A stretch of 7,938 nt of DNA from Escherichia coli (GTDB lineage Bacteria > Pseudomonadota > Gammaproteobacteria > Enterobacterales > Enterobacteriaceae), in the NCBI RefSeq assembly GCF_003334335.1, contig NZ_QOWQ01000070.1; one strand, 5' to 3'. This document shows, piece by piece, positions 794 through 1,853 of the stretch. Each line of letters begins with the position of its first letter. Position 1 is the stretch's first letter. The notes under the pieces are model-generated. The model saw nothing but the letters and a program-made list of their open reading frames with translations. It was not told the origin of the DNA and did not search any database. The translations under genes and the position numbers were made by a program.

Positions 794-967
794 TCAGATT
801 AAATTAATCTTGACATCATAGCTTTCAAGACCCGTCATTTTTTCCCGTGCGGTAAACTGAATACTGGTAACTTCTTTCCCGGTCTTTTTCTTAAGTTCAA
901 TAATTTTTTTTGTTATATATTCAGAAATATCTGCTTCTGCTTTTGTTTTTAAGTTTTCAATATTCAT
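794..967 (-). CDS. gnsB: GnsA/GnsB-family small protein (57 aa)
   Basis: Hand translation of the minus strand gives MNIENLKTKAEADISEYITKKIIELKKKTGKEVTSIQFTAREKMTGLESYDVKINLI, closely resembling the recalled GnsA/GnsB sequence (MNIEELKKQAETEIADF...REKMTGLESYDVKI). GAGGAA lies 5 nt upstream of the ATG at 967. It is absent from the ORF track because it is under 60 aa. Confidence 0.75.
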   Translation of the reverse strand: MNIENLKTKAEADISEYITKKIIELKKKTGKEVTSIQFTAREKMTGLESYDVKINLI

Positions 968-1138
968 CATTTCCTCTTTTAGTCTGTTATGACTTTCCAG
1001 TTACACAGTAAGTCGATTATATGGTGCAAACGTGTAAAAGATAAGATGAAACATCGCAATAATCAACATACGATAGTCTAAATTTTACACAAACAGACAA
1101 AGAGAATTTTCCTGAATTATCAATGCAATAGCATCAAA

Positions 1139-1369
1139 TCAACTCAAGAGCCTTATTGCTGCTTCCAGAATTTCTTCTGAAGTAACATGTCGATCCGCGG
1201 CTACATAAATGACTTTATGATCTCCGGTCAGAGATGGAAACCCTGCGGCCATTACAGTAAGGTGTGTTTTTTCGCCATTTGGATATTCACGCATGATGGT
1301 GTTAACTCCAGTCATCGCTGGCACTACCACTGCTGGTTCAGAGTTAAAAAAAACTATGATTTTTTTCAT
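1139..1369 (-). CDS. Hypothetical 76-aa protein at the ynfN position (between cspI and gnsB); possibly YmcE/YnfN family
   Basis: ORF-track frame 1139..1411 begins with TTG. The first ATG (plus 1367-1369) gives MKKIIVFFNSEPAVVVPAMTG... with protein-like composition, unlike the W/C/H-rich overlapping plus-strand ORF 1187..1453. The family assignment rests on synteny only. Confidence 0.5.
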   Translation of the reverse strand: MKKIIVFFNSEPAVVVPAMTGVNTIMREYPNGEKTHLTVMAAGFPSLTGDHKVIYVAADRHVTSEEILEAAIRLLS

Positions 1370-1410
1370 GATGTTACCGTAGTATGTGAGTATCCATCGA
1401 ATAGACACCA

Positions 1411-1434
1411 AGCAAAAAAGCTCCCGAAGGAGCC
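1411..1434 (-). terminator. Rho-independent terminator downstream of cspI (partly bidirectional)
   Basis: On the minus strand: GCTCC-UUCG-GGAGC (5-bp GC stem with a UUCG tetraloop, plus 1420-1433) followed by UUUUUU. On the plus strand it is preceded by AAAAAA and followed by a T-rich tract. Confidence 0.5.
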
Positions 1435-1640
1435 TTCATTTTCACTTTTTTAAATCCAACGACAGACGGCTGGCATTTAAGTATTGTGAAATATTATCAA
1501 ATGTAATCATCATTGATTTACAAAAGATACATTTTGCCCCGAAAGGATTCATGTCAGAAACATCAAAAGATGATGTTCTATACTGGGAACCATGACAACA
1601 CGGGCATCTAAAGTGAATATGGTTTGTAATATTGTCTACC

Positions 1641-1853
1641 TCAAAGCGCCACTACATGAACAGCGGCAGGACCTTTAGGTCCGTTCTCAATACCAAATTC
1701 AACTTCCTGATTCTCAGTTAATGTTTTGAAATCGTTGCTCTGAATTGCTGAGAAATGGACAAACACATCTTTGCTGCCATCTTTCGGCGTGATGAAACCA
1801 AAACCTTTTTCAGGGTTAAACCATTTCACTAAACCAGTCATTTTGTTAGACAT
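1641..1853 (-). CDS. cspI: Cold-shock protein, CspA family (CspI-like)
   Basis: The 70-aa product [23 protein letters not shown]...[13 protein letters not shown] carries the cold-shock domain RNP1 motif KGFGFI and RNP2 motif VFVHF. AAGGTAATAATT precedes the ATG, as in cspA. Confidence 0.9.

Follow-up and report, generated by a model that had tools for sequence, protein, structure and literature searches.

A cold-shock, ynfN and gnsB cassette of the Escherichia coli Qin prophage is more likely a stress and cold-shock moron than a toxin–antitoxin pair

In the Qin prophage of Escherichia coli, a cold-shock gene (cspI), a 76-aa open reading frame (ORF) and gnsB lie in the same orientation, an arrangement that recalls the chromosomal cspG-ymcE-gnsA cluster. 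GnsA and GnsB were already recognised in 2001 as paralogues whose genes are linked to csp genes. The original prediction, made from the sequence, took the 76-aa ORF to be possibly a full-length protein of the YmcE/YnfN type and the triplet to be a prophage copy of a toxin–antitoxin-like module, moved as a unit with a cold-shock gene. This raises the questions of what the middle gene is, in which direction the genes were transferred, and whether the pair at the end of the triplet behaves as a toxin and its antitoxin.

The stretch of DNA analysed here (the window, 7,938 nucleotides) is the E. coli Qin prophage. Positions 1-7861 are 99.96% identical to Qin of K-12 MG1655, with three nucleotide differences, and the final 77 bases diverge from K-12. 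Positions 746-1999 (minus strand) probably constitute an accessory ("moron") cassette of this lambdoid prophage, consisting of cspI, ynfQ, ynfR, ynfN and gnsB (Table 1), which occupy the same locus as b1552, b4724, b4749, b1551 and b1550 of K-12 Qin. The cassette is ordinary in that every gene is already annotated; ynfQ and ynfR, which are annotated in both K-12 and RefSeq, had been overlooked in the original prediction, as had the thermoregulator leader of cspI.

Table 1. Features of the cassette in the window
Feature	Position	Strand	Basis
cspI 5' leader, cspA-type thermoregulator	1854-1999	-	Rfam RF01766
cspI, 70-aa CspA-family cold-shock protein	1641-1853	-	ORF list; K-12 b1552; 79% identity to CspG
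ynfQ, 62-aa four-Cys zinc-ribbon-like small protein, ATT start	1442-1630	-	K-12 b4724; RefSeq "cold-shock protein"
Terminator-like intrinsic hairpin, GCTCC-TTCG-GGAGC + T6	1414-1436	-	Pattern scan; fold of -12.5 kcal/mol
ynfR, 21-aa ORF running through the terminator hairpin	1374-1439	-	K-12 b4749
ynfN, full-length 76-aa form	1139-1369	-	phrog_3425; RefSeq WP_000720962.1
T8 homopolymer, ynfN codons 6-8	1346-1353	-	Sole indel relative to MG1655
Conserved non-coding block, TTGATT, 17 nt, TATCTT; possible gnsB promoter	1035-1066	-	Conservation
gnsB, 57 aa, GnsA/GnsB family PF08178	794-967	-	67% identity to GnsA
Terminator-like hairpin past gnsB, 9-bp stem + T-rich tail	746-767	-	Pattern scan

The match to the cspA thermoregulator covers the leader together with the cspI coding sequence (1614-1999; E = 5.6e-29, with 112.8 bits where the gathering score is 78), in keeping with a CspA-family gene under a thermoregulator leader. 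The ynfQ gene starts 10 nt past the cspI stop codon, and its product resembles the small cold-shock protein YmcF, with all four cysteines (CxxC...CxxC) kept. A terminator-like hairpin follows directly 3' of the ynfQ stop codon, within ynfR. YnfR has been detected via epitope tagging (PMC6001520 Table 1); the Citrobacter cassettes lack its ATG and gave no YnfR match; ynfR is lineage-specific. If translated from the first of two ATG codons, gnsB spans 794-970, and the second hairpin begins 27 nt after its stop codon.

The 76-aa ORF, the ATG-initiated form of a 90-aa TTG ORF, is intact, full-length YnfN. It is matched by phrog_3425 (E = 7e-54) over positions 1-76 of 76, RefSeq carries the identical 231-nt coding sequence as "protein YnfN", and residues 26-76 equal the 51-aa YnfN of K-12. 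The homopolymer near the start of the gene is T8 in the window and T7 in K-12 Qin. The K-12 protein is thus truncated because a 1-nt deletion in this run shifts the frame, which has no upstream start in K-12. The exact T8 sequence was found in 1045 records and the exact T7 sequence in 417, and one further locus (L069) carries a separate, independent 1-nt deletion within the same homopolymer.

A short K-12 annotation and a weak Shine-Dalgarno sequence before the ATG at 1369 could mean that the longer ORF is a chance extension of a 51-aa gene, or that it is non-coding. This is scarcely credible. The family is conserved from Met1 onward, with MKK(I/V)IVFFN at the start of the alignment; the first 25 residues are among its best conserved, with M1, F7, F8 and N9 invariant, and every homologue in the range of 25-60% identity has a length of about 75 aa and begins MKKV(I/L)VFFN. 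The AlphaFold2 model of YnfN is confident (pLDDT 88.8, pTM 0.77) and has five strands and a C-terminal helix, with residues 2-7 forming strand 1. YnfN is thus a real, conserved family of about 75 aa in Enterobacteriaceae, for which we found no Pfam match, known fold or detectable relatives of known function.

The kinship with YmcE that had been suggested for this ORF did not hold up. BLASTP aligned nothing between YmcE and the 76-aa product at E <= 100, the NCBIfam YmcE model NF007379 (PRK09891) scored YmcE at 187 bits and did not match the ORF, and a YnfN HMM run on all six frames of the ymcE region found no match and no vestige of ynfN. Together these searches rule out YmcE membership. The two proteins are unrelated, and their common length of 76 aa is a coincidence. 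Because full-length YnfN is unrelated to YmcE, a copy of a YmcE/GnsA module in Qin is unsupported. The true middle paralogues are ynfQ and ymcF, together with non-coding elements.

Two of these non-coding elements are conserved: a terminator hairpin divides cspI-ynfQ from ynfN, and a block precedes gns. The equivalent of the hairpin at 1414-1436 was found after ymcF in K-12 (positions 2378-2396 of that locus, L001) and in Citrobacter cassettes. The substitutions in these hairpins, T-A to C-G and A-T to T-A, preserve the pairing when each sequence is folded individually. The block is kept in Qin, in the Citrobacter cassettes and in the K-12 ymcF-gnsA spacer (L001 about 2453-2490). A consensus sigma-70 scan from cspI to gnsB found no strong promoter, with the block below threshold; it is promoter-like by eye only (4/6 and 4/6 matches, 17-nt spacer), and we infer from its sequence that it may function as a promoter. 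A conserved gns-leader hairpin sequestering the Shine-Dalgarno sequence was also considered and rejected: RNAalifold gave no structure, and a 7-bp stem drawn by hand lacked compensatory pairs and was no better than shuffled sequences.

Active lambdoid phages have an intact four-gene unit, csp-ymcF/ynfQ-ynfN-gns, as do prophages of Escherichia and Citrobacter, so that the predicted movement as a unit with a cold-shock gene stands for the cassette itself. With 94-100% identity, the cassette is present in phages Tritos, PhiR42_1, 2H10, mEp460 and HannyBb, and the order csp-ymcF/ynfQ-(ynfR)-ynfN-gns was found at 75 of the 80 gns loci in IMG/VR. In prophage late regions ynfN usually lies upstream of gns, at a distance of 86-483 nt, and either gene is also found alone. 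Adjacent ynfN and gns genes with no csp gene occur in Silvania, Siccibacter and Phytobacter; prophage spanin and terminase genes flank the pair in Siccibacter and in Phytobacter diazotrophicus.

The Qin cassette runs in the direction of the late operon, with the lysis genes (rzpQ) on one side and the packaging gene nohA on the other, a position matched in phage Tritos and in the Siccibacter and Phytobacter prophages. This is the place of lambdoid morons, which have their own promoter and terminator within the late operon and, like the cassette, are found between Rz/Rz1-type lysis genes and terminase. The cassette likewise has its own regulated leader, of the cspA thermoregulator type, and its own terminators, and its content varies between related phages. 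It differs from these morons in having several genes in two apparent transcription units and in its combination of cold-shock and membrane-lipid content.

The resemblance of the cassette to the chromosomal cspG locus of K-12 is far beyond chance. Window positions 1857-1494 align with L001 1958-2321 at 74% identity (E about 1e-64 to 1e-65), and positions 985-793 with L001 2549-2742 at 73% (E about 1e-27 to 1e-28). The core locus cspH-cspG-ymcF-ymcE-gnsA has in common with Qin the paralogous csp, ymcF/ynfQ and gns genes (79% identity for CspI/CspG, 66% for YnfQ/YmcF and 67% for GnsB/GnsA), the hairpin, and the block with the gns Shine-Dalgarno sequence. Unlike Qin, it lacks ynfN and the lysis cassette, and its ymcE is unrelated to YnfN. 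The paralogous cluster that had been named for comparison therefore exists, with paralogous flanks, and the correspondence fails at its middle gene.

Clear paralogues on both flanks, the same order and orientation, and middle ORFs of 76 aa each would fit a Qin triplet copied from a captured chromosomal cspG-ymcE-gnsA module, with the 76-aa ORF as the equivalent of YmcE. We nevertheless consider such a capture very unlikely. The two middle ORFs lack similarity at the protein, profile and DNA levels, YmcE was found at none of the 80 IMG/VR gns loci, and the pairing of YnfN and gns with no csp gene extends to prophages of distant genera. Furthermore, the chromosomal spacer aligns to the non-coding elements of the phage cassette with ynfN absent, and the K-12 cspH-cspG side matches another part of Qin, cspF-cspB (76% over 635 nt), so that cspH-cspG-ymcF-gnsA is colinear with Qin cspF-cspB ... 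cspI-ynfQ-terminator ... block-gnsB. This match makes the chromosomal locus look like the derived one, namely a decayed Qin-like late region that has lost ynfN, and the direction of transfer was probably the reverse of that predicted. We also examined cspG as a recombinant with a cspB-like 5' part and a cspI-like 3' part, but the maximum chi-square test was not significant (53 informative sites, p about 0.14), and the deletion scenario is therefore drawn solely from the colinearity of the flanks.

The K-12 ymcE ORF shares 26 nt with ymcF and 11 nt with gnsA, and it overlies the terminator after ymcF, the conserved block and the Shine-Dalgarno sequence of gnsA. It is broken in all five representatives of other Escherichia lineages, in which cspG, ymcF and gnsA are intact. 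Within E. coli sensu stricto, ymcE is intact and annotated in 5415 of 5426 genomes, with at least 98% identity. Since it is intact in nearly all of these genomes and has been published as an antitoxin, it could be a young species-specific gene and not an artefact.

Published expression data group ynfN with cspI. Upon AZT induction, cspI, ynfQ and ynfN rose 6.5-, 5.9- and 5.8-fold, respectively, with parallel values in two further columns of the table (PMC11228462 Table 2), and in long-term stationary phase the profiles of cspI and ynfN run in parallel (PMC7406224 Table 1); gnsB appears in neither table. We propose that in lysogens the cassette serves as a stress and cold-response unit, in which the thermoregulated cspI leader would drive cspI and ynfQ, and read-through of the first hairpin would carry the transcript into ynfN. 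Such read-through would account for the nearly identical induction of the three genes, and it may be promoted by Csp proteins, which are described as antiterminators (PMC11228462). For gnsB, transcription would start at the promoter-like block, and in lytic growth the Q-antiterminated late transcript would cover the gene as well; abundant GnsB would shift membrane lipids toward unsaturated fatty acids.

GnsB belongs to the GnsA/GnsB family: its homologues are assigned to PF08178, it matches the GnsA structures PDB 4XO1 and 4XO2 with E about 1e-19 to 1e-20 (5e-20 for 4XO2), and the core TGKEV...AREKMTGLE is invariant in the family alignment. The predicted comparison with GnsA was thus borne out, as was the existence of a proposed YmcE/GnsA toxin–antitoxin relationship, which is listed as a type II system in PMC8484670, citing Wei 2015. 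By analogy, GnsB could be a toxin and YnfN a non-homologous antitoxin in the place of YmcE. Like type II modules such as relBE of the same prophage or the proposed YmcE/GnsA, ynfN and gnsB are small adjacent genes in one orientation on a mobile element; at least five genera have ynfN directly 5' of gns and in the same orientation, RefSeq and Pfam label Gns an "addiction module toxin", and overexpression of gnsA or gnsB raises persister levels (bioRxiv 10.1101/310961).

We consider a YnfN-GnsB toxin–antitoxin pair unlikely, however, and no sequence feature of such a pair was found in ynfN-gnsB. Unlike type II modules, the two genes show no tight operon coupling: 171 nt separate them in the window and 86-483 nt at other loci, with the promoter-like conserved block, or in some genera the STnc100 sRNA, between them. 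Nor do they co-occur obligately. Gns has no accompanying YnfN in any Escherichia cspG locus, including those with a broken ymcE, in C. gillenii and at loci L099, L103, L104, L112, L115 and L120, and YnfN occurs without Gns in phage PHB10 and at loci L091-093. Their expression partners differ, ynfN following cspI and gnsB not (PMC11228462, PMC7406224), and K-12 has a frameshifted ynfN next to an intact gnsB. ASKA-level overexpression of gnsA or gnsB is tolerated: according to bioRxiv 10.1101/2024.03.27.586906 and PMC10607373, which cite Sugai 2001 and 2004, it increases unsaturated fatty acids and rescues cold-sensitive growth instead of killing. YnfN has no recognisable antitoxin fold, and PADLOC gave no hits. 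In an AlphaFold2 model of a YnfN-(GGGGS)6-GnsB fusion, a crude test that yields no inter-domain confidence, both domains were folded with no confident packing (pTM 0.44, compared with 0.77 for YnfN alone). We therefore favour a stress and cold-shock moron over a toxin–antitoxin pair as the reading of the cassette, and the frequent place of ynfN before gns points to a loose functional link rather than an obligate pairing.

A more far-reaching view, which we regard as doubtful, is that YnfN and not YmcE is the genuine evolutionary partner of Gns. A two-gene YnfN-Gns unit, kept in the late regions of prophages across Enterobacteriaceae, would then act jointly on membrane lipid composition or stress tolerance, with YnfN modulating Gns, and the "antitoxin YmcE" would be an E. 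coli-specific ORF that came to run across the terminator and the gnsA promoter/leader after ynfN was lost.

Three points may be of use to curators and in work on small proteins or toxin–antitoxin systems. The reference ynfN of K-12 is a frameshifted allele, and experiments with a 51-aa clone examine a truncated protein. YmcE, to which the literature still refers as an antitoxin and for which even fold switching has been proposed, is encoded atop a conserved terminator and the elements upstream of gns, and its conservation does not extend past E. coli, which weakens the basis for the "addiction module toxin" label on Gns. The cspH-cspG-ymcF-gnsA core locus itself seems to have been domesticated from part of the late region of a Qin-like phage.

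The window is the late region of the cryptic lambdoid prophage Qin of E. coli. MG1655 (NC_000913 1636816-1644675) aligns to positions 1-7861 with two substitutions and one indel. Both substitutions, the only two in 7.8 kb, lie inside ydfU (6865, T for A; 6874, A for G). The final 77 bases (7862-7938) have no K-12 alignment, K-12 there running on towards rem, and downstream of ydfU the strain is unlike MG1655. The minus-strand order is ydfU, quuQ (ydfT), cspB, essQ-ydfR-rrrQ-rzpQ, cspI, ynfQ, ynfR, ynfN, gnsB; cspF is on the plus strand, divergent from cspB, and ydfO and ynfO follow gnsB on the plus strand. 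A cspA-type thermoregulator leader was found by Rfam ahead of both cspI and cspB. The original prediction described a triplet of cspI, a 76-aa ORF and gnsB; the ORF list confirmed all three at their coordinates, but the annotated ynfQ and ynfR between cspI and the 76-aa ORF had been overlooked. In E. coli strain 7/2 (NZ_CP023820.1 1822083-1824060), the cassette matches in two pieces with an annotated IS1 transposase between them, and is split by an IS1 insertion. A small zinc-ribbon protein (CxxC...CxxC), YnfU, is encoded next to cspB. YnfQ weakly matches the same NCBIfam family (ECs_2282, NF047912; E 0.0024, under the cutoff), and in phage PHB10, Citrobacter and Silvania, YnfU-like ORFs again lie near csp or gns cassettes. 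Phage csp genes seem to be accompanied by small zinc-ribbon genes.

Coordinates of cassette features and related elements
Feature	Sequence	Position	Strand	Details
cspI	window	1641-1853	-	ORF list
ynfQ	window	1442-1630	-	62 aa, ATT start, 10 nt past cspI; annotated
ynfR	window	1374-1439	-	21 aa; annotated
ynfN	window	1139-1369	-	76 aa; ORF list
gnsB	window	794-967	-	ORF list
ynfU	window	3991-4161	+	
cspF/cspB	window	4525-5253	+/-	
cspH, cspG	K-12 locus L001	1464-2174		
ymcE	K-12 locus L001	2348-2578		annotated ORF
Terminator-like hairpin	window	1436-1414		
Terminator-like hairpin	K-12 locus L001	2378-2396		
Conserved block	window	1066-1035		
Conserved block	K-12 locus L001	about 2453-2490		
csp/ynfN genes	phage PHB10 (L004)	2728-4228		
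STnc100	phage PHB10 (L004)	4832-5033		
STnc100	Silvania locus L107	2616-2808		
STnc100	Silvania/Siccibacter locus L114	2610-2812		
STnc100	Silvania/Siccibacter locus L116	2610-2812		
RyhB match	Silvania locus L107	5113-5176		68.7 bits

That the 76-aa ORF is a full-length YnfN was borne out: it matches PHROG 3425, a 76-position profile, end to end; in other strains, RefSeq lists the 231-nt form under 'protein YnfN'; and K-12 YnfN, annotated from Met26 (51 aa), is identical to residues 26-76 of the window protein. The K-12 ynfN ATG is out of frame because the coding-strand homopolymer at window 1346-1353, the site of the sole indel relative to MG1655, is T7 instead of T8. Among complete E. coli genomes, the exact T8 segment occurs in 1045 records and the exact T7 in 417; the T7 examples among the matches listed are K-12 laboratory derivatives. 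The tract is slippage-prone, since an IMG/VR contig (L069) carries an independent 1-nt deletion within the same T run. M1, F7, F8 and N9 of the N-terminus are among the best-conserved positions of the family, and a YnfN profile search of 1.8 billion representatives returned no more than 50 proteins, almost all of them about 75 aa in length with the start MKKV(I/L)VFFN.

The K-12 chromosomal cluster reads cspH(-) cspG ymcF ymcE gnsA, and the Qin genes had been taken for its mirror. The flanks are indeed paralogous, with protein identities of 79% (CspI/CspG), 66% (YnfQ/YmcF) and, in the pairwise comparison of GnsB with GnsA, 67%. The corresponding DNA identities are 74%, ungapped, for cspI+ynfQ against cspG+ymcF and 73% for gnsB against gnsA. 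However, the middle ORF lacks similarity to YmcE. BLAST revealed no DNA similarity between the Qin and chromosomal loci from the csp/ymcF to the gns flank, BLASTP gave no alignment of YnfN with YmcE even at E<=100, the curated YmcE model did not match YnfN, and a YnfN HMM matched no frame of the ymcE region. The proposal that the 76-aa ORF is YmcE-like thus fell at the pairwise check, and the common length of 76 aa is a coincidence.

When the spacers were aligned after taking ynfN out of the phage sequences, the K-12 ymcF-gnsA spacer and the phage cassette had three non-coding elements in common. The first is a GC-rich, terminator-like hairpin with a T-run directly 3' of the ymcF or ynfQ stop, also present in Citrobacter cassettes. 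Seven versions fold at -12 to -18 kcal/mol each, and the stem has changed between lineages (T-A to C-G, A-T to T-A) with pairing kept. The second is a block, TTGATTATTG...TTTC...TAT..TTA, and the third a Shine-Dalgarno, AGAAGAGG, ahead of gns. The annotated ymcE ORF starts within ymcF, runs across the terminator and then the conserved block, and ends within gnsA; translated, the hairpin reads 'RLPRGAFF' in YmcE and 'KAPSGAFL' in YnfR of Qin. The ymcE frame is broken in representatives of five further Escherichia lineages (E. albertii, E. whittamii and clade-level genomes among them) by start loss, frameshift or stop codons; cspG, ymcF and gnsA are intact there, and the nucleotide changes in gnsA are nearly all synonymous. 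In E. coli proper ymcE is intact, because the cspG-gnsA locus is core (5415/5426 genomes) and nearly invariant there. We infer that ymcE is, at most, a recent ORF confined to this species. YmcE is still handled as an antitoxin in the literature (PMC8484670).

The core idea of a copied toxin-antitoxin module with a YmcE-type partner is therefore unsupported, the middle ORF being YnfN. It also seems improbable that ynfN and gnsB themselves form such a pair. Their adjacency recurs in at least five genera, but they are separated by 171 nt here and by 86-483 nt in other loci, the STnc100 sRNA lies between them in Silvania and Siccibacter, and each gene also occurs without the other. Although the Gns family bears a 'toxin' label and gnsA or gnsB overexpression raises persister counts (bioRxiv 10.1101/310961), plasmid gnsA or gnsB rescued growth defects rather than killing (bioRxiv 10.1101/2024.03.27.586906, PMC10607373), and K-12 tolerates an intact gnsB next to a frameshifted ynfN. 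Two transcriptome studies (PMC11228462, PMC7406224) show ynfN expression following cspI and ynfQ almost exactly, with gnsB outside those sets. In an AlphaFold2 model of a YnfN-linker-GnsB fusion, a crude test, both halves were folded, but the pTM was 0.44. Sugai et al. (2001) reportedly found normal growth in a gnsA gnsB double null and no response of GnsA and GnsB levels to cold shock.

STnc100 (Rfam RF02076, above the gathering score) also occurs in phage PHB10, where about 0.6 kb and a 112-aa ORF separate it from the YnfN homologue upstream; Rfam found none in the window. From the Silvania gns locus, a RyhB sRNA match that also exceeds the gathering score follows 2 kb downstream.

Active lambdoid phages, among them Tritos, PhiR42_1, 2H10, mEp460_ev081, HannyBb and PhiR63_1, carry the whole cassette at 94-100% identity, with lysis genes on one side and on the other the terminase or the right end of the genome. 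Among 80 IMG/VR loci with a GnsB relative, 75 have the order csp-ymcF/ynfQ-(ynfR)-ynfN-gns, a diverged set (YnfN 72-80%, Gns 81-84% identity) included, and YmcE is in none of the 80. The cassette is thus mobile, as had been predicted. With one genome per species, Gns relatives occupy only 25 loci, all in Enterobacteriaceae. Silvania, Siccibacter and Phytobacter have a YnfN homologue upstream of gns but neither csp nor ymcF; prophage spanin and terminase genes flank this pair in Siccibacter and Phytobacter diazotrophicus. On the strength of these csp-free loci, the YnfN-Gns pairing predates its link with csp.

The 57-kb E. coli phage PHB10 has cspF-like, cspB-like and ynfU-like genes and a 75-aa YnfN homologue (59% identity) adjoining integrase and umuDC; ynfQ and gns are absent. 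Two Logan contigs (L088/L089) carry a chromosomal-looking stress island with, in order, genes for TehB-like, DUF1869, PmrD and HSP20 proteins and a YnfN homologue, then two unknown genes and those for Mn catalase and a Gns homologue. YnfN and Gns thus stand among other stress genes, separated by 2.5 kb.

The cassette is carried by phages, and the chromosomal locus looks derived. On the left of that locus, a 76% match to Qin cspF-cspB over 635 nt takes in cspH, the intergenic stretch and roughly 115 nt at the start of cspG, and the cspG leader resembles that of cspB, not that of cspI. The chromosomal locus thus brings together two separate parts of a Qin-like late region. In the simplest history, this Escherichia core locus would be the remnant of such a region, the lysis cassette having been lost from between cspB-like and cspI-like genes and ynfN later. 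This history rests on flank colinearity, since an intragenic mosaic test of cspG fell short of significance (p about 0.14). Independent ynfN loss is seen in Citrobacter gillenii-type loci and in another locus (L099).

We propose that the cassette is a two-unit moron. cspI-ynfQ would be driven by the thermoregulated cspI leader, with most transcripts ended by the conserved hairpin after ynfQ; ynfN would be reached by read-through of the hairpin, which would explain the matching cspI/ynfQ/ynfN induction ratios. Csp proteins, which are known antiterminators (PMC11228462), could enhance this read-through. gnsB is probably transcribed from the conserved block upstream. During lytic growth, all cassette genes would fall within the Q-antiterminated late transcript. 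Abundant GnsB increases unsaturated fatty acids and so favours low-temperature growth and secretion (bioRxiv 10.1101/2024.03.27.586906, PMC10607373). The locus is ordinary and already annotated; its useful by-products are that K-12 ynfN is a frameshifted allele, that the status of ymcE is doubtful and that the cspH-cspG-gnsA core locus appears to be of phage origin.
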